Origin: Microcoleaceae cyanobacterium | Lineage (GTDB): Bacteria; Cyanobacteriota; Cyanobacteriia; Cyanobacteriales; Microcoleaceae | DNA: 32,000 nt | Reading direction: 5' to 3' | NCBI GenBank assembly: GCA_049649525.1 | Contig: JBARZE010000026.1 | Span: 40,246-72,245 of the forward strand | In this document: piece by piece, positions 4,823-24,357 of the stretch | Layout: each line of letters opens with the position of its first letter | How positions within the stretch are numbered: position 1 is the stretch's first letter | Made by a program: the position numbers and the translations under genes | The notes under the pieces: model-generated | Seen by the model: only the letters and a program-made list of their open reading frames with translations | The model's database searches: none | What the model was told of the DNA's origin: nothing

Positions 4823-6260
4823 ATGACTCCAAAGCAATTTGAAATTAAGTTCAATAACTTATCATCTAGAAAAAAGGAGATATTAGAAAAACTATTAGCA
4901 GGAGAGAGTGATAAGACAATCGCTAAATCACTCAATATAGTTGAAAATACTGTTAGACAAAATATTGCTAGTATTTGCAATACTTTTTTAGGGAAAGCAG
5001 TTATTTCGGGTAAATGTAGGCGCGATGAATTAGTTGATATCTTCCAAAGACATAAGCCTGAATGGGTGAATTTGGATGATGATATTGAGGATCAAGTAGA
5101 GATTGATTTAGATCAAAGTTTTGATATTTCAGATAATAGTACTTCGGTTTTAATTAGTGATAATTCTGTTAATTCGGAAGGAAATCAAGAAAATAATAAT
5201 GTTGAAGAGAATAGAGAAAGTAATCAAATTGAAAAAACTTTAAGGGAGAAAACCAATTGGCAGCAAAAAAGACTATTTGGTATTGATAAAATACTTGATA
5301 AATTGGGGGATAATCTCCGAAGTCCTGATGATTATTGGTTGATGAGTTTGACGGGTGCAGGCGGAATTGGTAAAACGTCTTTAACTGAAAAATTAATTAG
5401 TGAATATGGGGAAGATTGCGGTTTTGTTAAGTTGGCTTGGACTACAGCAAAAAAAAACTTATTTAGCGGCGGATATGTCGGTGCAAATCGAAAATAATAG
5501 AAGAGATATTAATGCAGATAGTATTATCTATGATATTGCTTCACAGCTTGAGATTAATTTACCACCTGCTAACAAAGATCACTTCAAGGCACTGCAAAAA
5601 AAGTTACAAGCAGATCCTTATTTAATTGTGATTGATAATTTAGAAACGGTATCAGAATATGAGCGTCTTTTGGATAGATTTAATCCTTTTCAACCCGAAT
5701 GCAATATTAGACCCAGCAAGATAATTTTGACTTCTCGTAAAGATGTAAAAGCGAATAATTGTGCAGCCAGAGAAATTAAATTGAAGGGTATAGATCCCTC
5801 AGCAACTTTAGAGATGATTCGATATCAAGGTCAAGAATTAGATGTGATTCAACAGGCTTTAGATGAAACATTATATCCAATATATGATAAAACACAGGGC
5901 AATCCTTTGATGATTTTATTGGTAATAAATTTATTGAAAAAATATGATGAGCCGTTAGAAAGAATATTTCAAAGATTTGACAAAGAGCAAAATATTCAAG
6001 CTTTTTTATATGAAGAATCATTAGATTCACTCTCTGATAGTGCGATACGGGTTTTAAATTCGGTAGCTGAATATAGTCCTAATAGTTTAATTTCTCGCTT
6101 GAATATTCAAGAAACATCCGGTTTAAATGATGATGAATTTACACAAGCTATCGCAGAATGTAGCAAATCTAATCTGTTAGAAAGTAGTCAGAGTATTCAA
6201 TCAGAATCTAGATATTCAATGCATAGTTTACTTTATGAGTTTTTAACAACATATTATTAA
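4823..6260 (+). pseudogene. N-terminal LuxR/GerE-type HTH fused to an NB-ARC-like STAND P-loop ATPase, split into two ORFs by a frameshift in an A9 run (5449-5457)
   Basis: HTH: LSSRKKEILEKLLAGESDKTIAKSLNIVENTVRQNIASI. Walker A LTGAGGIGKTSL lies in ORF 4823-5497. Walker B YLIVIDNLE and KIILTSR lie in ORF 5400-6260. Removing one A from the 9-A run joins ...KLAWTTAKK to TYLAADMSVQIENN. Confidence 0.75.
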
Positions 6261-6267
6261 TAAGAAC

Positions 6268-7617
6268 ATGAGCAGAAAATCTTTAAAAGAAAGATTGCGT
6301 CAAAACAAGCCCGATCCAAATCGTCATTTTGCTGTTCTTCTGTCAAAATCAGAGATAGAAATAGATTTAGATCATGTAATTACAGCCTTAAGAAAACACT
6401 ATAATAAAACTCAATATTTACAGAAACGTTCTCAATTACTTAGTCAGTTTATTGATAAAGCTTTACGGATTTTTACGACAACTGAAGCATGGCTTTATGA
6501 GATAGATCAACTCATTGAGGAATATCAAACTAATTCAATCAATTTACCCGCTATTTTGTATTACAATAAGTTTAAATGTTTAGCCAATTTATCAGTTTCT
6601 CATCCAAAGGCAGAGTTTAATCTCAAAAAAGCGATAGCTTTAGAAACTAATTTACATAATAAAATTGACTATCAAATTTATCTAGCAATATATTATGAAA
6701 ATACGAGTCAATTTAAAAAAATACCGAAAATTCTTAATCGCTGTGAAATACTATGTCGGCAAAATCATAATTTAGAAAAGCAGTTAGGTAGAACTTTGCT
6801 TTATCTAGGACATTATTATTTCTATACATTTCAATTAGATAAAGCGGCTGATTATATGAATCAAGCAACAAATATTTTACTTGCTATATTAAAAACAAAA
6901 GAAAAAGAAAAAAAAGAAATTTTACAATTATTGAATAGCTGCTTTCATTATTTAGGTCGAGTTTATTTAGCACAATATAATTTTGCTGAAGCCGCTCAAT
7001 TCTATATCAAAGCTCAATATTTTCTAGAAAAAGCTCGTGATGAATATACATTAAGTAATGACTTGGGTGCTACTGCTTTTTATCATTTAAGATTAGGTCA
7101 GATTTTAGAAGCGAATCAATTAATTGAAAGCGCAGATTATCATTATCAGAAAAGTCAAAATATATTTATTGACTGCGGTAATCTTTCGGGTCAAATGCAA
7201 GTATCATTAGCAAGAGCAAATTTAATCGGGAGTTTTGTTGATAATTCTAATTATAATAAAAAAGAGCTTTTAGAAAAGCAAGCTCAACAAATCTGGGAAG
7301 CGGCTATTGATGCAAAAGCAATAGGATATAATCGTGGCTACTTAGAAGCTTTATTACGACTATTTTTGCTCAATATAAAAAAAGGCAGAATAAGGGATTT
7401 AATTAAAGTGGGTTTTGCTATTGTGACAACTTCTGAATTTTATAAATTTATTTTTAGCAATCCCAATCTATTGATATCTAAATTACAATTAGCTCTAGGA
7501 TTGTATGGTATGGGGCCTTATCATGAAGCAAGATTATACAAGTATAAAAAACACCAACCTCACACTATTCTAGAAGCTTGTCCCTGCGATGAATGCAAAG
7601 ATAGAAAATTGAAATAA
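6268..7617 (+). CDS. TPR-like helical-repeat protein, probably the detached sensor arm of the upstream STAND ATPase
   Basis: 449-aa ORF starting 7 nt after a TAATAA double stop. TPR-like units include LGRTLLYLGHYYFYTFQLDKAADYMNQA, CFHYLGRVYLAQYNFAEAAQFYIKA and AFYHLRLGQILEANQLIESADYHYQKS. The C-terminus carries CPCDEC. Confidence 0.6.
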   Translation: MSRKSLKERLRQNKPDPNRHFAVLLSKSEIEIDLDHVITALRKHYNKTQYLQKRSQLLSQFIDKALRIFTTTEAWLYEIDQLIEEYQTNSINLPAILYYNKFKCLANLSVSHPKAEFNLKKAIALETNLHNKIDYQIYLAIYYENTSQFKKIPKILNRCEILCRQNHNLEKQLGRTLLYLGHYYFYTFQLDKAADYMNQATNILLAILKTKEKEKKEILQLLNSCFHYLGRVYLAQYNFAEAAQFYIKAQYFLEKARDEYTLSNDLGATAFYHLRLGQILEANQLIESADYHYQKSQNIFIDCGNLSGQMQVSLARANLIGSFVDNSNYNKKELLEKQAQQIWEAAIDAKAIGYNRGYLEALLRLFLLNIKKGRIRDLIKVGFAIVTTSEFYKFIFSNPNLLISKLQLALGLYGMGPYHEARLYKYKKHQPHTILEACPCDECKDRKLK

Positions 7618-14025: not shown

Positions 14026-14221
14026 TGTTGCTAATTGTAACTTTAGACACGATTTCAATTATCTCTACATTTTGTCTTGAAAGCGGGTTACAGAATCTTT
14101 AGTTTATTTAAAAAATGCGTAGCAGCAGTATTCCAGTCTAGAAAATAATCTTTAAGAATTTGGAATTGAGTTCATATAATGGTGAAGTATAAAGTATCAT
14201 CCTTAATCGCTACCTGAACTG

Positions 14222-16265
14222 ATGGAACCCATAACTGCTACTGCTATTATTACCCTTCTCTCTACCAAATTTATTGAAAAAGCCACTGACAAGCTGTCAG
14301 AAGGGGGAGTACAAAAACTCAATGATCTGCGTCAACTGATATGGCAGAAAGTACGAGGACAGGCAAAAGTAGAAAACGCCCTGAAACAAGTTGAACAAGG
14401 TTCAGAGTCAGAATTAGACGTTCAGCCTGTAGCTGCATTTCTCGAAACCGTAATGACGCGATCGCCTGAATTTGCCCAACAAGTTCAAACCCTTGCCCAG
14501 GAAATTAACCAAGAAATTAATATTGATATGCCCAACGCTAAAGGTGTTCAGAATGTCTTCGGTGGTGAAGCTTATCAGTCTATTAAAAATCAAGGGCCTA
14601 CCTTTCATGGTAGTAATCATACCATCACTTTTAATTGACTAAACTCGTCCGAACCGGATCGGACAAAGTTAACTCCCCCTTATGAAAACTTAGGGATACG
14701 CGGTATTGCTGAACGCGATAAATTTGTTGGACGCGATTCTCTTGACAGAGAGGCTACGCCAACGCACACTCGTAGATCTTCATCAATTATTGCAGCAAAA
14801 TACCCAAGTTGCGATCACAGCAGCGGTTATTGGTATGGGCGGAGTAGGTAAAACAGAACTTGCTATTCAATACGCCCGTCAACACCTGGAAAATACTTAT
14901 ACAGGCGGCGTATGTTTCCTGACTGGCAATAGTTTTATCTTGGAGTTAATTCAATTTGCCCGTCCTCGCTTCTTCCCGAAGATGGACTTTAGCGGCTTTT
15001 CGGAAAAAGAACAATTAGACTATTGCTGGACACATTGGGCGGAAGGGGAAGTCTTGTTAATTGTAGATGATGTCACAAACTACAAACAACAGGTTAAACC
15101 TTATTTACCCAGTTCTCCTCGGTTTAAAATATTAGTGACCACGCGAGAACAGATCTCTAACGTTACTCCTCTCAATTTAGAAGTTCTGCATTCCGATGAT
15201 GCCTTAAAATTACTTGAGTTTATCATAGGGAAAAATCGCATCGACGCAGAAGCCGAAACTGCAAAAGAACTCTGTCAATGGTTAGGTTATTTACCGTTAG
15301 GCTTAGAATTAGTCGGGCAATATTTAGCAGAAGATGAAGATCTGTCCTTGGCAAAGATGCTGCAACGCCTGCAACGTAAACGCCTACAACATTCTTCCCT
15401 AAAAGATGCAGATACAGCAGAAACCGCAAAATTAGGAGTTGCCGCAGCCTTTGAATTAAGCTGGGAACGGTTGCAACAACAACCCGAAACGCAACAATTA
15501 GGATGTTTATTATCCCTATTTTCTCCCGATGCAATATTGTGGGAATTAGTAGAAGCAGTATATCTCTATTGGCAAGGAGAAGATATTGATCTCGAAGATA
15601 TTGAAGATAGTAGACGCAAATTAGTTAAACTCAGCCTATTTCAACGAAGCAAAGAGAAAACCTATCGCCTGCATCAACTGCTACGGGAGTTTTTCCGCGA
15701 CAAACTGGAAGAACGAGAAGATGCAGCGGCAATAAAACAAGCTTTTGTCACCACAATGGTTTATATTGCCCGTCAAATTCCTCAAGATATTACCACGCAA
15801 CAAGTTAAATGGGTTGAACCCTTTACTAAACATATTGAAGAAGTAGCTAATAGTTTCACTGAGTTGTTACCTAATAAAGATTTAATTGCAATATTTACTC
15901 CTTTAGGTTGGTTTTATCAAGATCAAACCTTGTATTCTGAAGCTGAACTATGGCTGAAGAAAGGGGTAGAGATCATAAAAAGCCGTTTCGGAGAAGAACA
16001 CAATCACGTTGCCCTTAGCCTGAATAACTTAGCTCATATTTATCACTCTCAAGCACGTTACAGGGAAGCTGAACCTTTGTTTCAACAGGCTTTAGAAATG
16101 TATCAACGGCTATTTGGAGCATATCATCCCGATGTTGCCACCAGCCTGAATAATTTAGCTCATATTTATCACTCTCAAGCACGTTACAGTGAAGCTGAAC
16201 CGTTGTTTGAAGATGCTTTAGAAATGTATCAACGGCTATTTCAAGCAGACCATCCTAAATCTTGA
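14222..16265 (+). pseudogene. NLR-like STAND gene (helical N-terminal domain, NB-ARC, kinesin-light-chain-type TPRs) disrupted by an in-frame TGA and a frameshift, and truncated at the 3' end
   Basis: ORF 14222-14638 ends at TGA 14636-14638. The same frame continues LNSSEPDRTKLTPPYENLGIRGIAERDKFVGRDS with no start codon. The NB-ARC body (LHQLLQQNTQVAITAAVIGMGGVGKTELA, LLIVDDV, ILVTTR) is one frame over, so the shift lies between ~14740 and ~14775. TPR units are LNNLAHIYHSQARYREAEPLFQQALEMYQRLFG, present twice. The last unit breaks at HPK (~16258). Confidence 0.75.
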
Positions 16266-17147
16266 GGACGTGCGAAGAAGTAGAAGTTTTTCTACTTCCT
16301 GGGAAATGGAATTTGAGGAGGAGAAATCTTTTTTGATGTCTGATAATCCGCTTTGTTCAGATATTTCAACTTGTTCTAGGGTGGCAAAAATCCGCACTTG
16401 GTCGGGTTCGGCTAATGGGGCTGTATTAAAATTAATAAATAATTTTTCTTGAGCAATCAAACTGTTAATTTTATCAGTAGTTATTTCTGATTGAGTTAAT
16501 AGTAATTGGGTATAACTTATTCCGGGCTTGGCTTTAACTAATGATAATATGACTGCTTCTAGAGTATTGTTTTCGTCTAAATTTTGTCTTTGAAAATAGG
16601 GTTCTAACCATTGATAATTTCTTAACCGAATGGTATTGGATTCGAGGTCTGTTCTGATATAATAATTAAGTCCGTATTTTTGAGCGTATTCTTCTCCTGG
16701 TGGACAATGCCAATTTCCCGTTTCATTTTGGAGATAGCGGTGGGGAAGAGGGTTGTGCTTTTTTGATTAATTCATTAATGGGTTTAAATTCTTCCCATCT
16801 GGCTTCTGTTAATCCTATTACGAAAAAATCAGGGGTATGTGCTGTTCGTACTCTTCGACCACTTTTGGAAATGTAATTTAATTCTATTGGTGGCGGTTGG
16901 TCGTAATATTCTAAAACTTCGTGATTATGCTCTAATTTGTCGATGATATGTGCTAATTCGCCCCGATGGGATTCAAACTGAATAGTTTGACCCATTTTTT
17001 CACTACAATATTTCCCACAAACGTTGCCGTAATTCCCTTGTACTCTCCGCGATGGTGGCAGGCGCGAATTTGAGTGATTAGCTGACGGGTAGCTTGCGGT
17101 AGTTGTAGTTGGCTACACCATTGCTCAAATTCTTCTTCTGTGAGCAT
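16260..17147 (-). pseudogene. tnsA: TnsA-like (Tn7-family endonuclease subunit) gene remnant with at least two frameshifts
   Basis: Three reverse-strand pieces. (1) MLTEEEFEQWCSQLQLPQATRQLITQIRA. (2) After a shift at ~17055-17065, PPSRRVQGNYGNVCGKYCSEKMGQTIQFESHRGELAHIIDKLEHNHEVLEYYDQPPPIELNYISKSGRRVRTAHTPDFFV. (3) After a shift at ~16745, RYLQNETGNWHCPPGEEYAQKYGLNYYIRTDLESNTIRLRNYQWLEPYF. No tnsB or tnsC follows. Confidence 0.65.
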
Positions 17148-17190
17148 TGATTTGTAGTTTTATTTTCTTTCTGAATTTTACTGTAAAAGT

Positions 17191-17329
17191 GTCCACTTTC
17201 TTCTTCCATTTTAGAATGATGGCCACTTTCTTGTTCCAAATTGGCTCTAACTTTATTTCTTCTTTAACGATGGAATCAGTCTTTCGGCTTTTAACCTGGC
17301 CAATATCTTTTTCCAAACCTGGCCAATAT
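17191..17329. repeat. Two pairs of direct repeats immediately 5' of the tnsA-like remnant (possible transposase-binding or operator sites)
   Basis: gtccactttcttcttcca (17191) and ggccactttcttgttcca (17221) are 30 nt apart. aacctggccaatat occurs at 17293-17306 and 17316-17329, 23 nt apart. Confidence 0.5.
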
Positions 17330-17334
17330 TTTCT

Positions 17335-17581
17335 TCAAATCACACGTTGCGGCACGCAGTAGCGTGATTGAGTCGTAGTATCTGCTAACTGTTCGGTAAC
17401 AATTGCTTCAACCCACACCTTGAGTTCACCGTTAAGTTCTGCTGGCTCATCAAAGAACTGTTTAATGATTTCAACTTCGGGCAGCACTCTCGCTCAGTTT
17501 CTGCTGTTTCATGTATTGTCTGAGTTGCTTGTGATATTTCGGGGGTAGGTAGGTAACAGCTCTAATATTCTTGGTGGTCAT
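17335..17581 (-). pseudogene. Small ribbon-helix-helix-like gene with one frameshift
   Basis: Reverse translation from ATG 17581 gives MTTKNIRAVTYLPPKYHKQLRQYMKQQKLSESAARS*. Another frame then continues EVEIIKQFFDEPAELNGELKVWVEAIVTEQLADTT…*. The palindrome gtatgc-N8-gcatac at ~17628-17647 lies upstream. Confidence 0.3.
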
Positions 17582-17866: not shown

Positions 17867-19226
17867 ATGAAAAATACGATTATGACCAATACCGTTAAAA
17901 AAGCATCTTCTTTACCTCCAGGAAACTTAGGTCTACCTCTCATTGGCGAGTCTATCCCATTCTTCAACGATTCAAATTTTATTGATAAGCGTCAAAAAAA
18001 GTACGGAAAGATTTTCAAAACTAATATTTTTACTCGCCCTACCATAGTCATGATAGGCTCCGAAGCCAACCGATTTTTATTTACCAACGAAAATAAATAT
18101 TTTTCTGCGACTTGGCCTGCTAGTACTAAAACTTTGTTAGGAAAAAATTCTCTATCTGTGATAGGAGGAGCTATGCACACTCAACGTCGTCAGCTCATGT
18201 TTGAAGCTTTCAAACCTAGAGCATTAGCTAGCTATCTACCCACAATAGAAGCTCTGACAACTCGTGATCTCGAAAAATGGACACGCATGGGGACTTTAAC
18301 CTGGTATCCCGAATTGAGAAATTATACTTTCGATATTGCAAGCAAGTTATTCGTCGGTAAAGATGGGGGGTCGCAAACAGTTTTAGGAGAGCTATTTGAG
18401 GAGTGGTGTAATGGCTTATTTACTCTTCCCATACGTCTTCCTTGGACGAAATTTAGTAAAGCTTTACGGGCGTCGCACCCTAATGCTAGAAGAAATTGAA
18501 AAAATTATCTTGAAGCGTCAGAAAGAAAAAGATTTAGGGGAAGATGCTTTAGGAATTTTATTGCAAGCTAAAGACGAAGAAGGAAATAGTTTATCTTTAG
18601 AGGAACTCAAAGACCAAGTACTTCTTTTATTATTTGCAGGTCACGAAACTCTTACGTCTGCTTTAGTTTCTTTTTGTCTATTGATGGCGCAACATAGAGA
18701 AATATTCACTCACATTTGTACAGAGCAAAATCGACTAGGAATAGACAAACCACTCAACCTCGATAATTTAAAAGAAATGGTTTATTTAGAGCAAGTTCTC
18801 AAAGAAGTATTGCGTTTCATTCCTCCAGTTGGTGGTGGTTTTCGAGAAGTCATAGAAGATTGCGAGTTTAATGGTTATTCAATTCCTAAAGGTTGGGTGG
18901 TGCAATATGTGGTGGGAAAAACTCATCAAGATAGAGAAGTTTATCAACTTCCAGAAGAATTTGACCCCGAGCGCTTCAGTCTAGAAAGAGCAGAAAATAA
19001 AAACAAAATCTTTAGTCATATACCTTTTGGTGGTGGCGCTAGAGAGTGTTTGGGTAAAGAATTTGCTCGGTTGGAAATGAAAGTTTTTGCTGCTATGTTG
19101 GCACGTCATTATGAATGGGAACTTCTTGCAGACCAAGACTTAACAATGGGTGCAAGTATTACTCCACATCCCCGTGATGGTTTACAAGTAAGTTTTAAAA
19201 AGCAGCAGTGTTCAGCTTCACAGTAG
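17867..19226 (+). pseudogene. Cytochrome P450 (CYP120-like) split by a frameshift near 18470
   Basis: Heme-thiolate motif FGGGARECLGKEFARLE, I-helix LLFAGHETLTSA, and an N-terminal LPPGNLGLPLIGES. ORFs 17867-18499 and 18396-19226 overlap. The sense switches between …WTKFSKALRA and RRTLMLEEIEKIILKRQ. Confidence 0.85.
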
Positions 19227-20892: not shown

Positions 20893-21487
20893 GCGATAGA
20901 CTGGGCGGTAGAGCAACGCAATTTACGCCGCTATGTTGCAGAAATTCATTCACAGTTGGCGTTTCAGAAAGATGATTTCAGTCATGAGCCTTGTCTTAGC
21001 AGTATCGCAGCGTCGGGTGTAAGTGACAAAGTTATTGAGCTTGACACAGTTCGACGCGATAAAGATAACACTCGATCTGCCCTTTTGCCATCATCGGATT
21101 TGAAACCTAGTGAACCTGTAACCACAACAGTAGCGACTGCTAATATTTCTCATAAAGTTGTCGATATTGAGAAGAAGGAAGTGAGTCAGTCTCTACCTGC
21201 ACCCTTCACTACTAGCTCATTACAACAAGCCGCTGGAGATAAATTAAATCTAACGACAAAAACAACGATGAGTATAGCTCAGAAACTCTATGAATCTGGA
21301 TTAATTACTTACATGAGAACGGATTCTTGCTCATTATCTGAGGAATTCTGTTCAGCAGTAAAAGCTTATTTGCAACAACACGACTCACAAAATCTCCCTG
21401 AAGTTATGACTCAACATCGTAATAATAAATCGGCTCAGGAAGGACATGAAGCGATTCGACCCACTCATATTGAGGAGACTCCTGAAC

Positions 21488-22668
21488 CAGAAATGTTGAA
21501 TCGGTCGAGGAATCTATCTAAAATTAGACACACTACACCTATTATCAGCAAATTTTGTCAACAAAAAACGCTCCTTAGGTAACCAATGAACATAGCTGAT
21601 GTTTTCACACATAAAAGCCTGTAAATAACGCAGCTTGTCTAATAATTTATTTCCAAACTCTTTAGGAATTATGACTAATTGCAGCAACACGTAAGCGATT
21701 AAACAGACATAGATTGGAATAGTGATTCTATTAGTATTTTTAGTGATTAAACGGTCGAGTTTAAGATGCATCTTTAAGAACTTCCAGAATAATTCTATTT
21801 GCCAACGTAATCGATCAGATTCTCCCACTTCTTCATTACTAATTCTTTCTACTCCTGTTTCAGGTAAATTGGTAACAAAACGAAATTCAGTTTTGCTTTC
21901 TATCTCACAAAAATTGACGACTCGGGCTACCACTTGCTGACTACCTGTTCCTACTAATAATTGACTATTGTCCAACATTTATAGCCGAATATTGTTTTTT
22001 ATTAAGAATAAAAAATATCTTTGAGTTTCACTCATTAATTTTTCAACTCTTGACAGGCTTGAAAATCCTCTGTCCATTAGACTAACTCCTTTTGATGGAG
22101 TAGCTTCTATCCTAGAGTCTCCATACTTACTATCATGACCTTGGCCAAAATGAATTCAAATACCTCCTGGTTCTGCCGTCAATAAATTCAGACCAGCAAA
22201 CAGTTTGACTTGGTAAAAGTCTTGAGACCATAATAGTTTACTTGTTCAAGTCACAATAGTTGAATCCAATGGGAATAATACTAACTTATCTGACTGTTTT
22301 TTATCAGAAAGTTTTAACTTTTTTCTCAGCTTTAAAAATAAATTATAAAATTGAAGTGGGTCTCGATTTTTGCGCTTCTTTAGAGAAAGTTGAAATATCT
22401 ACCTTTATGCCCCGCACATTTAGGCGTTTAAATAGGCTCCTCATACTCGCGATTGCTTTGATCAAGGGCAAAATTTAGCCAGGTAGAAACAAATAGGAAT
22501 GAACTCAGGACTGGATAATCATCTTGAGGAAGCTCTCCTAGGAGATTTTTGACGAGGTGAGGAAAGTTTGATACCATACAGCTATTAGTTTTTTGAAATT
22601 CATAAGCCTCCAGTCTATCAGATTAGAGGCTCTTTTTTAAGTCTTTTCACTAACATTCAACACTTCTG
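21488..22668 (-). mobile_element. IS4-family insertion sequence (1181 bp) with a decayed DDE transposase, 14-bp terminal inverted repeats and a 9-bp target-site duplication
   Basis: IRL is cagaaatgttgaat (21488-21501). IRR, reverse-complemented, is cagaagtgttgaat (22655-22668). The TSD ctcctgaac occurs at 21479-21487 and 22669-22677. Transposase pieces on the - strand include PLDSTIV, LMDRGFSS and RLRWQIELFWKFLKMHLKLDRL (the DDE blocks), with several frameshifts and stops. Confidence 0.85.
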
Positions 22669-22817
22669 CTCCTGAACATTTAAGTTCATCACTTCAAGGG
22701 CAAGAATTACAGTTGGATGAACTGATTTGGAGTCGGGCGACCGCATCTCTATGTAAGCCTGCCATAGTAGAGAAAACTCAGGTGAAAATAATTGCAGGTG
22801 AGCAGGGCGAAGCCCTT

Positions 22818-22964
22818 GGAAGGCAGAAGGCAGAAGGATGATCCCTCAAACTTATCCTGCTTAGATACAAGCCCTGACTTAAGAAGTCGCTGTAAGTTTA
22901 GTGGGAGTCCAAGCTCCTTCCAAACCAGTGACCCTCTGCCCTCCTCCCTCTGCCCTCTACCCTC
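22818..22964. repeat. Short insertion (147 bp) bounded by inverted heptamer-repeat arms, (GGCAGAA)n and (CCCTCTG)n
   Basis: The left arm is ggaaggcagaaggcagaagg (22818-22837). The right arm is ccctctgccctcctccctctgccctctaccctc (22932-22964). It interrupts the topoisomerase between …VKIIAGEQG and YEYHFLLKGNRI. Confidence 0.65.
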
Positions 22965-23250
22965 GTATGAGTATCATTTTCTGCTTAAGGGTAATCGAAT
23001 TGTAGAGTCTTGTTATGCTAAATATTGGCAGAATTTAGCAGAAGAAAAAGACTTACCTGAATTTATAGTTGGACAGACTTTAGAGTTAGAGAGCGTTCGT
23101 TTAAGTCAACACAAAACTGAAGCGAATAAACGATTTACTGAGCCGAGTTTGGTTAAGACTCTGGAAAAAAATGGTATAGGTCGCCCTTCAACTTATGCTA
23201 CTATTATCAATACTTTAATTGATAGAGCTTATGTGACATTGATTGAACGA

Positions 23251-23471
23251 GGGCAGAAGGCAGAAGGCAGAAGGCAGAAGGATTATAAATTAAGAGATTC
23301 AAACTCGCCACTAATTGTAGACGATCAAATCAAAGATTTTAATAGGGATCTTGTATCTAAAAGTATGAAGCGCGACAATGCAGTCTTAGAAGAAACCCCC
23401 ATGAGTGATTGTCGTAATAAGGGAGAAGAAAAATCAAACCCTCTGCCCTCTGCCCTCTGCCCTCTGCCTTC
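23251..23471. repeat. Second insertion (221 bp) with the same inverted heptamer-repeat arms but an unrelated interior
   Basis: The left arm is gggcagaaggcagaaggcagaaggcagaagg (23251-23281). The right arm is ccctctgccctctgccctctgccctctgccttc (23439-23471). It interrupts the topoisomerase between YVTLIERG and KKNLVVTELG. Confidence 0.65.
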
Positions 23472-24357
23472 AAAGGCGTTGGCGTAGCCTCTCCGCCAGG
23501 AGAAAGCCTGACAAGAAGAATTTAGTCGTAACAGAGTTAGGCTTGAAGGTTGATGAAATTCTATTTCAGGTGGTTCCAGATATTATTAATCCAGGTTTTA
23601 CAGCTCAACTTGAAAAGAATTTAGATGAGATTGCCGATTGTCAATTGAATTGGGAGTAATGGCTAATTGATTGGAATACTCAAACGTTTCAACCTGCACT
23701 GAATCGGGGTAATCAAGTGATTGAGCAAGTCATTTCTTAACAATTAACAGAGTTCGATTGTCCTATTTGTGGTGCTAAGTTGAAGAAGCATCAATATATT
23801 AAAAATAAAGAGTCGAAAGTGATGCTACGTTGTTCTCAATTGGGTAATTCTGATTGTAAAGATGTGGCTTATTTTCAATCAAGGGATTTGTTTTGGAGTC
23901 CTAAATATGGAGATTTGCCGGGGCAGGTTAAACCTCAAAATCAGAATTTGGCTAAGGTTAAACCCGCAACTAAAACTAATACTCCTGTTTCGGGAACAGT
24001 ATCTAGAAGCCCTAAATTAAGGAAATCTCTGTAGTTAAGTGTGTTGCGATGGCGTTGTATTGCGTGACTCAGCTTTTATGACGTAATTCTATTGCCTACA
24101 TCAAGTTTGCTGTTAGTAATATCTTCACGGGGAATATTCCTGTAGTTATCTATCTACTTTTCATTCCCTTTATCACCCCTTGAGATCTCTCTATTCTAGT
24201 AATGAGGTTCTATCTCATAAACCTTTGCAAACATTATCATGCTAGTAATACTTGGAAACAAAGTTGAAGAACCGCCTTCTTGGGCTATTTAGTAATATGC
24301 CTAATTAGTTACTATTAGATTAAGTCTAATTATAAATCAGAGAAGTTGCATTACTTA

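Follow-up and report, generated by a model that had tools for sequence, protein, structure and literature searches.

Bell-domain/BASS amyloid-signalling gene pairs have been described from filamentous bacteria (Dyrka et al. 2020, bioRxiv 10.1101/2020.01.06.895854), and Bab/Agp from E. coli (Ibarlosa et al. 2024, bioRxiv 10.1101/2024.11.07.622273). The published screen for such pairs demanded a motif common to the Bell C-terminus and the NLR N-terminus, and Dyrka et al. 2020 do not mention stop codons or readthrough (bioRxiv 10.1101/2020.01.06.895854). According to the authors of the Bell work, the Bell subfamilies have very low mutual similarity; a 'MEPIS' motif has been described for the N-termini of Bell, Hell and Avast2 (bioRxiv 10.1101/2024.11.07.622273). 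A literature search on readthrough in bacterial NLRs or in cyanobacteria returned nothing relevant and no report of the case described here. There is ample documentation of programmed stop-codon readthrough in viruses and animals; among bacteria, to our knowledge, it is almost confined to phage (Q-beta A1) and scattered cases, and we know of no system in which hairpin-stimulated readthrough, established in eukaryotic and viral systems, has been established for bacterial ribosomes.

We analyzed a 32,000-nt stretch of DNA from a Microcoleaceae cyanobacterium (hereafter, the window), in which the original prediction had seen a single NLR gene inactivated by an in-frame TGA. The locus does not fit a simple dead single gene, nor does it fit a two-gene pair of the classical type, because the TGA is conserved, the downstream NLR is under selection and the hairpin at the junction covaries. 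It is a third arrangement beside the single gene and the two-gene amyloid pair.

Effector ORF and NLR half in the window

On the + strand, ATG 14222 opens a 138-codon ORF (14222..14635; MEPITATAIITLLSTKFIEKATDKL...GVQNVFGGEAYQSIKNQGPTFHGSNHTITFN) that is closed by TGA 14636-14638, so the ORF and its translation agree with the predicted 138-aa N-terminal module (14222-14638) followed by an in-frame TGA. A consensus scan (10/12 matches) found a putative promoter-like site (TTAAGA-17-TATAAT, 14152..14180, +) that precedes the Bell start codon by ~42 nt and is a consensus match only; the orthologues at L003 and L013 are likewise preceded by a recognizable cATATAATgg core.

As judged from its sequence relatives, the N-terminal module is Bell-type and a member of a large family. 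Residues 1-25 (sequence start MEPITATAIITLL) make up a hydrophobic 'MEPIS'-type first helix, residues ~1-100 a helical bundle, and residues 102-138 a G/N/Q-rich segment. The AF2 model places helices at residues 6-12, 15-22, 27-44, 48-58, 64-80 and 82-100, with a pLDDT per 10-residue block of 69-87 over residues 1-100 and <50 over the disordered G/N/Q tail (102-138). Its composition and its disorder in the AF2 model suggest that this tail is a putative amyloid/prion motif. The N-domain is not a chance ORF, because HMMER recovered 294 cluster representatives at E<=1e-3 (most of 130-155 aa) and dN/dS among close orthologues is 0.1-0.2. Two members of the HMMER family, P0026 and P0038, are encoded at classical motif-sharing pairs (L022 and L023), and classical pairs from Acaryochloris and Pseudanabaena also fall in this family; the link to Bell runs via these relatives, not via published seed sequences.

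The Bell-like module with a hydrophobic first helix was thus correctly anticipated (MEPIS-like helix, ~100 helical residues in AF2, a family found in Bell/NLR pairs), as was the G/N/Q-rich C-terminal segment, seen as a disordered tail in the model. The predicted likeness to HeLo and CC domains was not detectable at the level of the fold, with no meaningful match in a profile search of PDB sequences (best E=0.048, none related) or in a Foldseek search of the AF2 N-domain model against PDB (best E 1.5; Rx CC domain E=9.1). Neither sequence nor fold similarity was detected between the N-domain and Babybell (PDB 9H9V), HeLo, MLKL 4HB or CC. The 138-aa ORF has no significant match to a Pfam, NCBIfam or PADLOC family, an EspA match of 18 bits lying below the curated cut-off. 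The Bell domain may kill through membrane attack.

The P-loop (GMGGVGKT, 14832-14855) and the remaining NLR lie in a different frame, in ORF 14706-16265. Pfam identified NB-ARC (E=7e-15), winged-helix/DUF7779 (E=7e-6; 26.6 bits, just below the 27-bit cut-off), TPR_10 (E=3.5e-34) and TPR_12 (E=9.5e-33) in this shifted frame (14763..16265, +), bearing out the prediction of NB-ARC followed by KLC-type TPRs. In tblastn, 494 residues of the NLR half align with the L007 product at 81% identity, and the NB-ARC with P-loop and subsequent sensor repeats of an NLR are present. An intact NLR reading frame is absent in the window. The frameshift predicted ahead of the P-loop is a discrete, window-specific 25-nt insertion (TCTCTTGACAGAGAGGCTACGCCAA, 14738..14762, +), recognized by comparison with orthologues; it is missing in L007, L003 and L013, interrupts a GCGATCGC (HIP1) site, and throws the NLR out of frame after FVGRD. 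The TPR array ends mid-repeat at ~16258, as had been proposed, with the break lying at ~16256-16262, and similarity to L007 stops at ~16238-16262. Without the insertion, the window copy spans 672 codons, vs 1023 and 882 in the read-through ORFs of L007 and L003.

In place of the lost TPR tail (16277..16995, -), we found a 22-nt sequence with a 9-bp perfect inverted repeat and a 4-nt loop (16277-16298, read directly) and a TnsA-like endonuclease fragment (16723-16995, -; Pfam Tn7_TnsA-like_N, E=2e-5, 25.5 bits vs the 26.5 cut-off), and a transposon may have caused the truncation. Several other genes in the surrounding 32 kb are broken. Decay of the NLR copy was therefore rightly predicted as regards the insertion and the TPR truncation, two lesions that are separate from the TGA. 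As the insertion breaks the frame and the TPR tail is replaced, only the short Bell protein could still be produced intact; the inactivation is recent, given a dN/dS of 0.10 against L007.

The conserved junction stop and its hairpin

An in-frame stop at the effector/NLR junction was found in 19/19 loci of this class that could be read, as TGA in 18, TAG in one (L017) and TAA in none. The loci come from Microcoleaceae, Limnoraphis, plasmid gamma of Nostoc/Anabaena PCC 7120, Acaryochloris (7 loci on 6 plasmids) and several metagenomes, and span ~11 lineages in several cyanobacterial orders; they are not 19 independent events, because many of the Acaryochloris copies are paralogues. The PCC 7120 copy lies at NC_003267.1 65522-70384 on the minus strand, with WP_044520337.1 and WP_044520336.1 as its annotated proteins. 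The window reads UGA CUA at the stop (14636..14641, +), and both C at +4 and CTN as the next codon were observed in 18/19 loci. C at +4 and UGA-CUA are recognized leaky contexts (PMC7026636), and stop identity and 3' context in the 19 loci match those of leaky readthrough. Nine classical two-gene relatives end in TAA (7/9) or TAG, a significant difference in TAA use from the loci with the junction stop (Fisher one-sided P=3e-5). A Trp at the stop position in P0007 was rejected as a gene-caller artefact (code 4), the DNA (L013) reading TGA. The TAG locus L017 shares its Bell protein, P0013, with the L018 contig.

This comparison overturned the idea that the TGA is an inactivating mutation. The frameshifting insertion and truncated TPR array of the window copy, along with the other broken genes in its surroundings, would suit a plain pseudogene, i.e., one NLR gene killed by a nonsense TGA and later lesions, yet the same TGA is common to all relatives of the class, whose NLRs are intact and selected and run on for up to 1481 codons, and it is also found in the complete plasmid sequences of cultured strains. 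The 11 complete read-through ORFs (678-1620 codons) contain zero further stops, downstream selection is not relaxed (dN/dS 0.1-0.2), and a covarying hairpin accompanies the TGA. We consider the pseudogene explanation very improbable; by sequence comparison, the TGA is a conserved stop and not a decay mutation.

The hairpin (GUCCGA-ACCGGA-UCGGAC, 14647..14664, +) was delineated using alignment A6, RNAalifold and a covariance model. It has 5 bp, begins 8 nt 3' of the stop and is present in 17/19 loci. Across the 15 loci of alignment A6, all cells (100%) of the 5-bp helix are paired, vs 12-50% at slid control positions, and the helix contains two compensatory pairs; pair 22-37 is UA in 11 loci and CG in 4, and pair 24-35 is CG in 11, GC in 2 and UG in 2. 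The covariation score of 0.220 (vs 0.136 in shuffles) was reached by 0/500 shuffles, and RNAalifold independently predicted the junction hairpin. The compensatory pairs arise via non-synonymous changes in both arms (S-S-E...D-R-T vs S-P-E...E-R-A vs S-S-G...E-P-T), synonymous change is depressed within the hairpin codons, and the loop codon is variable between loci.

Covariance model R1, trained on 9 loci, recovered all 8 plasmid copies outside the training set, every one placed precisely at a stop, and a scan of 92 kb gave no other match. The junction hairpins are short, and z-scores from folding the sequences singly are weak (0 to -1.9), including that of the window (-9 to -10 kcal/mol, z=-1.5), which is weak alone. 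L001 and L015 keep the in-frame TGA-CUG and have no hairpin; at L015, a 24-nt deletion takes out exactly the hairpin and retains the frame. A metagenome scan added a single Lyngbya-type deletion derivative. L026, the sole match when viral contigs were scanned with a degenerate DNA pattern, has no ORF context and was taken as chance.

Two further elements of structure are possible. An outer helix pairing UUGACU (14635-14640, including the stop) with AGUUAA (14667-14672) would span 14635..14672 (+); it is paired in 94% of cells across 15 loci, its changes are one-sided only and the UAG variant still pairs, and it is inseparable from coding constraint on Lys-Leu. It was preferred over the AACU/AGUU helix of the window's single-sequence fold, which was dropped because it fails at loci with AAG or GAG in that codon. 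A loop-to-downstream pseudoknot (GGGA x UCCC) is paired in 80%, with one compensatory change, and may likewise form; it is inseparable from Pro-Pro coding.

A hairpin right 3' of an in-frame UGA, with conserved G residues in the loop ~20 nt past the UGA, has the geometry of a bacterial SECIS (PMC7026636), and could in principle recruit SelB so that selenocysteine is inserted at the junction. We rejected this owing to L017, which has the same cassette with UAG. No Cys homologue was seen at this position among the sequences read (the W of P0007 being the artefact noted above), the position is in a linker and not at a redox site, and an Rfam scan of 14100-15000 gave chance-level matches only, with no family matching the hairpin. 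Anabaena PCC 7120 is not known to possess Sec machinery. The probability of selenocysteine insertion is, in our estimate, minimal.

Linker, motif and translation of the NLR half

Beyond the TGA, the frame of the window remains open through ...LNSSEPDRTKLTPPYENLGIRGIAERDKFVGRDS. The linker (LNSSEPDRTKLTPPYENLGIRGIAERDKFVGRD, 14639..14737, +), which would be made only upon stop read-through, leads into the NB-ARC N-terminus and has no in-frame ATG, GTG or TTG, in agreement with the prediction that this part has no start of its own. No ATG was found between stop and P-loop in any of 11 linkers examined; L003, L013 and the window have no ATG, GTG or TTG at all ahead of the P-loop, and the sole candidate starts in L007, L019 and L020 come after the conserved FVGR motif. 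The frame from stop to P-loop is unbroken in L007, L003 and L013, and the linkers (45-63 codons, at least 5 different lengths) are all in frame. With a dN/dS of 0.15-0.25, the linker evolves as coding sequence, and the NB-ARC domain is under purifying selection (0.1-0.2). Substitutions relative to L013 past the hairpin are mostly at third positions, and coding-type conservation starts right past the hairpin, upstream of every candidate start. A conserved in-frame stop, coding conservation downstream of it and the lack of an independent start, the features expected of readthrough, thus occur together.

No copy of the effector motif was detected on the NLR side in 16/16 loci with the junction stop (z<=1.1), and in 17 loci, the window among them, z was <=2.1 when the last 45-70 effector residues were compared with the 60-110 post-stop residues. 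In classical pairs of the same Bell family the motif is duplicated (z=6-26 in 3/5), and in those classical two-gene relatives that were checked, the NLR has a separate start and the motif is present twice. With no motif repeat at the NLR N-terminus and no start of its own, the locus is, as originally argued, not a true two-gene amyloid pair. The family also contains stop-free natural fusions (P0023, P0094 and P0153), so a Bell-motif-NLR polypeptide is viable. In Acaryochloris, this motif-TGA-hairpin-NLR cassette is also found behind an alpha/beta-hydrolase effector, indicating that the cassette is modular.

Two separate proteins could still be made if the stop were efficient and the NLR were translated by termination-reinitiation or from a non-canonical start (ATT, CTG, internal TTG/GTG), the hairpin pausing or tethering the ribosome. 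Several linkers contain an in-frame TTG or GTG; at L033 the TGA is directly followed by GTG, so ordinary translational coupling would be allowed there; and PGAP calls an ATT start in frame with the TGA in PCC 7120 and models a GTG start inside FVGR in Acaryochloris. Tight coupling or overlap is the rule in classical Bell/NLR pairs (bioRxiv 10.1101/2020.01.06.895854). However, the post-stop codon is CTA or CTC, both non-start codons, in many loci, no canonical start precedes the P-loop in L003, L013 or the window, and the coding-type conservation begins upstream of all candidate starts. A separately started gene would not need the shared frame that all linkers keep, and a separately made NLR would have no motif for signaling to the effector. 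We regard translation as two proteins as unlikely.

The hairpin might instead have another job, as an RNase processing site, a regulatory-protein site or a stability element, with the shared frame a relic of a fused gene. Its RNA-level conservation, the depressed synonymous change inside it and the missing Rfam match would fit, and fused ancestors are plausible in view of the true fusions. Indels would be expected to destroy a relic frame, yet the frame is kept at every linker length, including in the 24-nt hairpin deletion of L015, and the exclusive use of UGA/UAG with +4 C, the absent start codon and the absent motif on the NLR are left unexplained. This possibility seems to us a good deal weaker still than that of two proteins.

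On balance, we think it probable that the locus encodes an immune module of the Bell/amyloid-signaling kind, in which a programmed leaky stop codon links effector and NLR. A single mRNA would carry the Bell domain with its G/N/Q motif, then UGA-CUN, an 8-nt spacer and a hairpin of 5-6 bp, and then the start-less, motif-less NB-ARC-TPR frame. Most ribosomes would stop at the UGA and release the 138-aa free effector, and a minority would put a near-cognate amino acid (probably Trp) at the UGA and continue, so that the NLR of the resulting long isoform has this Bell-motif module at its N-terminus. Cyanobacteria lie outside the scope of a paper on tRNA-Trp with a 4-bp anticodon stem. Ligand-driven oligomerization of the rare long form would gather its motifs, which could template the abundant short form, freeing Bell helix 1 for membrane attack, with cell death or abortive infection as the outcome. 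How leaky the stop is would determine the ratio of sensor to effector, with the long isoform as the ligand-triggered nucleator. In this scheme we infer the readthrough itself, its efficiency, the inserted amino acid, the amyloid templating and the membrane attack. We give an even chance to the more specific proposal that UGA/UAG, CUN and the hairpin at 8 nt form a dedicated cyanobacterial recoding signal by which an abundant effector-motif protein and a rare effector-motif-NLR protein are made, leakiness setting their ratio and the long form nucleating.

Gene callers split these genes, with an arbitrary internal NLR start (ATT, GTG or the P-loop ATG) or code 4, so many database NLR entries of the class are probably wrong at the N-terminus. 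Because the published screen required a motif shared by Bell and NLR, the class was invisible to it; the proposed readthrough, if true, would account for Bell/NLR neighbours missed by motif-pair screens. It would also represent conserved, structure-stimulated programmed readthrough in cellular bacterial genes, and suggests that the sensor:executioner ratio is fixed at the level of translation. The covarying RNA stimulator would offer a tractable system for 70S ribosomes bypassing stop codons, and Anabaena PCC 7120, a genetic model with a copy on plasmid gamma, makes a direct test possible.

Comparison with known systems

The junction resembles viral and eukaryotic readthrough sites (Sindbis UGA-C, UGA-CUA(G) genes) in its UGA/UAG, +4 C and CUN at +4 to +6 (context rules in PMC7026636), and differs from them in that the genes are cellular and bacterial (plasmid or chromosomal) and are translated by 70S ribosomes. 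As in MuLV (UAG, 8-nt spacer, pseudoknot), the structure begins 8 nt downstream; unlike the MuLV pseudoknot, the putative stimulator here is a short hairpin, with a pseudoknot possible. Programmed readthrough, including that of phage Q-beta A1 in bacteria, yields a fixed ratio of two products from a single ORF, and the same is predicted here. With the bacterial SECIS the junction shares a hairpin just 3' of an in-frame UGA and conserved loop G residues; it is set apart by the occurrence of UAG, the lack of Cys homologues, the linker location and the lack of an Rfam match.

Like the Bell/BASS pairs, the locus has a small helical effector with a MEPIS-type helix and a C-terminal G/N/Q motif, directly upstream of and collinear with an NB-ARC/TPR NLR; it too occurs in multicellular cyanobacteria, and within its HMMER family there are genuine pairs whose NLR repeats the motif. 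Unlike in those pairs, the NLR here has no motif copy and no start of its own, and the two frames are joined by a conserved UGA/UAG and a hairpin. The long isoform, if read through, would have the same architecture as all-in-one NLRs (fungal NLRs, plant CC-NLRs, Avast2 and bNACHT N-termini), and true fusions exist within the family (P0023, P0094, P0153). In contrast to all-in-one NLRs, the fusion here would come from only a fraction of ribosomes, with the effector also free and in excess, and the amyloid-like motif lies between the effector and the NOD domain. If true, this would be a third route of NLR-effector coupling, beside two-gene amyloid signaling and all-in-one fusion.

In-frame stop between effector and NLR

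The N-terminal ORF runs for 138 codons from an ATG at 14222 to a TGA at 14636-14638 (plus strand), and its frame stays open past the TGA as LNSSEPDRTKLTPPYENLGIRGIAERDKFVGRDS, in which a start-codon census found no ATG, GTG or TTG. The P-loop (GMGGVGKT, 14832-14855, plus strand) lies in a different frame, in an ORF at 14706-16265 with Pfam matches to NB-ARC (7e-15) and DUF7779 and strong matches to TPR_10/TPR_12. The in-frame TGA, the lack of a start behind it, the frameshift ahead of the P-loop and the NB-ARC and TPR content described in the original prediction are thus real. Its reading of the TGA as an inactivating lesion failed, as the DNA of relatives carries an in-frame stop at the same junction in 19 loci.

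The DNA was read at every relative that could be fetched. In the closest orthologue (L007, a Microcoleaceae MAG; Bell 88% identical) the junction reads ...NINY*LNSSEEDRIKLTPPYENLGIRGIAERDKFVGRDRTLIDLHQLLQQNNQVAIAAAVIGMGGVGKT, NB-ARC shares the frame of the TGA, the frameshift is absent and the read-through ORF spans 1023 codons. The same arrangement was found at L003 (882 codons), L013, L004, L014, L015 (1070), L019 and L020 (940), with a TAG stop at L017 (678 codons), and in complete plasmid records of cultured strains, those of Nostoc/Anabaena PCC 7120 plasmid gamma and six Acaryochloris plasmids. The PCC 7120 copy (NC_003267.1 65522-70384, minus strand; L027:4501-9363; read-through ORF of 1620 codons) has Bell WP_044520337.1, the TGA, a hairpin and NB-ARC WP_044520336.1 in this order. 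In total, the 19 loci of this leaky-stop class represent ~11 lineages and use TGA (18) or TAG (1) and never TAA, with C as the following base in 18 and CTN as the next codon in 18, whereas nine classical two-gene pairs from this family terminate with TAA (7) or TAG (2; Fisher one-sided P for TAA usage, 3e-5). The TGA at the junction is conserved and is not decay, which speaks against the rival of a plain pseudogene. Selenocysteine insertion at the UGA is another rival, against which the one UAG locus counts. Seven other sizeable ORFs of the window, too few for interpretation, end in TAA (3) or TAG (4) and none in TGA.

The junction is also found behind another kind of effector. On Acaryochloris sp. 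'Moss Beach' pMB04 (NZ_CP071721.1 92790-93759; L028:426-1395), the effector is an alpha/beta-hydrolase of 305 aa with the same G/N/Q motif at its C-terminus (..ISGGEVYQGENITINKTT). After it come TGA CTA GAG, the hairpin and, still in frame, NB-ARC/TPR; the whole spans 1020 codons. The leaky-stop cassette thus serves two kinds of effector and is not confined to Bell.

One apparent Trp-for-stop variant, the fused Bell-NB-ARC protein P0007 predicted by a metagenome gene caller, was rejected: the DNA (L013, 488-1648) has TGA, which the caller rendered as Trp under genetic code 4, and such database entries can pass for sense-codon variants. In the Limnoraphis MAG JBJHBL010000001.1 (L001:6001-6819), TGA CTG AAC is retained in frame at the end of the Bell ORF, but the hairpin is absent. 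The extension of 129 codons has no relation to NLRs, and next to it lies a 387-aa protein containing hydrophobic stretches; either the partner differs here or the locus has been rearranged. At L009:5001-6150, L012 and P0008 (Lyngbya aestuarii BL J), Bell residues 1-100 are joined directly and in frame to the NLR winged-helix/TPR tail, a deletion derivative missing motif, stop, hairpin and NB-ARC.

RNA hairpin and the downstream frame

A UGA with C after it is known to terminate weakly, and both UGA-CUA and structures starting ~8 nt downstream stimulate viral and eukaryotic readthrough (PMC7026636). In the leaky-stop loci an element GUCCG(A)-loop-(U)CGGAC lies 8 nt past the stop. In a gap-free junction alignment of 15 loci, the 5-bp helix was paired in 75 of 75 cells, with pair 22-37 as U-A (11) or C-G (4) and pair 24-35 as C-G (11), G-C (2) or U-G (2). 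The covariation score was 0.220 vs 0.136 in shuffles (0 of 500 reached 0.220), and sliding the partner by 1-3 columns lowered pairing to 12-50%. Both arms compensate through non-synonymous changes (S-S-E...D-R-T, S-P-E...E-R-A, S-S-G...E-P-T), and the central loop codon is free to vary (P, W, E, G or R). RNAalifold independently predicted the helix, plus an outer helix UUGACU/AGUUAA that takes in the stop codon. A covariance model trained solely on nine metagenome/MAG loci recovered every one of the eight plasmid copies left out of its training, all precisely at an effector stop (E 3e-17 to 3e-6), with no other match in 92 kb. Single-sequence folding energies were unremarkable, a candidate pseudoknot between loop GGGA and downstream UCCC was indistinguishable from Pro-Pro coding, and L015, like L001, has no hairpin.

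Among four close orthologues, synonymous change was low in the ten hairpin codons (dS 0-0.16 vs 0.15-0.76 in the Bell domain), which points to RNA-level constraint. The hairpin could as an RNA element serve another role, a rival reading that this constraint would also fit; the hairpin region had no Rfam match and no terminator-like T-run on its 3' side. The dN/dS was 0.1-0.2 in the Bell domain, 0.1-0.2 in NB-ARC and 0.15-0.25 in the linker past the hairpin (comparisons with L013), where changes were mainly at third positions.

Independent initiation or translational coupling of the NLR is a further rival, and the PCC 7120 NLR is indeed annotated (PGAP/RefSeq) from an ATT 21 codons past the TGA, in the frame shared with the TGA. 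No ATG occurs between stop and P-loop in any of 11 linkers examined, no canonical start precedes the P-loop in L003, L013 or the window, and the sole TTG/GTG codons of L007, L019 and L020 sit past the conserved FVGR motif. Linkers of 45, 51, 55, 56 and 63 codons are all in frame, and that of L015 has a deletion of exactly 24 nt. We infer that the frame downstream of the stop is translated from upstream.

Bell-type effectors and their motifs

A word-indexed search returned only standalone relatives of the N-terminal ORF (136-143 aa, plus one 83-aa fragment), and exhaustive HMMER with their alignment gave 294 cluster representatives (E ≤ 1e-3), mostly 130-155 aa. The family has a ~100-residue conserved helical part opening MEP(L/I)TA, followed by ~35-40 G/N/Q-rich residues of several distinct motif types. 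For the window Bell, AlphaFold2 (47 homologues) predicted six helices within residues 6-100 (pLDDT 69-87 per 10-residue block over 1-100) and disorder at 102-138. Its N-terminus agrees with the 'MEPIS' motif common to Bell, Hell and some antiphage NLR N-termini (Ibarlosa et al., bioRxiv 10.1101/2024.11.07.622273), and textbook Bell/NLR pairs with the motif repeated at the NLR N-terminus (L022, L023, L032, L035, L036) fall inside the same HMMER family. Based on this family membership, layout and predicted fold, we assign the 138-aa ORF to the Bell type. The Bell-like domain originally proposed thus holds for family and N-terminus; profile search and Foldseek detected no resemblance to solved structures, Babybell 9H9V among them, and Pfam, NCBIfam and PADLOC models did not match.

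Classical pairs share the motif between Bell C-terminus and NLR N-terminus, for which local alignment gave z = 25.8 (L022), 7.6 (L023) and 6.0 (L032). A repeat of the motif on the NLR, the mark of a two-gene amyloid pair, was found in none of 16 leaky-stop loci (z ≤ 1.1), as expected if the NLR gains motif and whole effector by translation past the stop. True fusions with no stop exist, namely P0023 (a similar G/N/Q motif straight into NB-ARC), P0094 and P0153. In the Acaryochloris classical pairs L032, L035 and L036 (TAA), the NLR starts at its own GTG four codons past the stop, carries a separate copy of the motif and is also in frame with the Bell ORF; these form one related lineage, so their in-frame state is compatible with chance.

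The window copy and its neighbourhood

The 'decayed' label suits the NLR half of the window copy and not its TGA. Relative to L007, L003 and L013, a 25-nt insertion (14738-14762, plus strand; inside a GCGATCGC site) puts the NLR out of frame, so a read-through product would end 70 codons further on. The insertion splits a HIP1 palindrome exactly (GCGAT|...|CGC) and carries a small inverted repeat, CTCT-TGAC-AGAG. The TPR array is cut off as had been described, similarity to L007 ending at ~16238-16262. Directly past this point lies a 22-nt sequence (16277-16298) that forms a perfect inverted repeat of 9 bp, and short minus-strand ORFs follow within 16266-17500, including an N-terminal fragment of a TnsA-like endonuclease (16723-16995, minus strand; 25.5 bits, just below the Pfam cut-off of 26.5 bits). 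Inverted repeat and minus-strand ORFs are probably the remnant of an element that took the TPR tail. Inactivation of the NLR is recent, given a dN/dS of 0.10 between the window NB-ARC and L007.

Other genes nearby are also broken. A second STAND gene (4823-7617, plus strand; GerE/LuxR HTH, NB-ARC and a weak sub-threshold TPR_12) is broken into three ORFs that differ in frame (4823-5497, 5400-6260, 6268-7617), which may reflect decay or recoding. A cytochrome P450-like gene (17867-19226, plus strand) is split into two ORFs, 210 and 276 aa long, the second with the heme signature FGGGARECLG; their overlap points to a frameshift. Bacterial DNA topoisomerase fragments (20956-21582, 22792-23487) flank a DDE transposase fragment (21514-21978, minus strand), and this gene looks IS-disrupted.

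Proposed readthrough and known systems

When the stop occupies the A site, a hairpin from +12 sits at the ribosome's mRNA entrance, the geometry of frameshift and readthrough stimulators. Under programmed readthrough, the majority of ribosomes would terminate and yield a free Bell-motif protein, and a minority would read on to give Bell-motif-NLR. The putative readthrough signal is well backed by comparative evidence and open to testing in a model organism (PCC 7120).

Full-text literature searches that paired readthrough with the terms NB-ARC, cyanobacteria, Anabaena or bacteria turned up no report of such a case. The screen of Dyrka et al. needed a motif common to the Bell C-terminus and NLR N-terminus and therefore could not detect the leaky-stop class, and neither stop codons nor readthrough come up in their text (bioRxiv 10.1101/2020.01.06.895854). 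The leaky-stop loci are variations on two known themes, Bell/NLR signalling and programmed readthrough. As in amyloid signalling, ligand would activate the long form to act as nucleator, with the short form as amplifying executioner; the difference is that here their stoichiometry would be fixed by translation.
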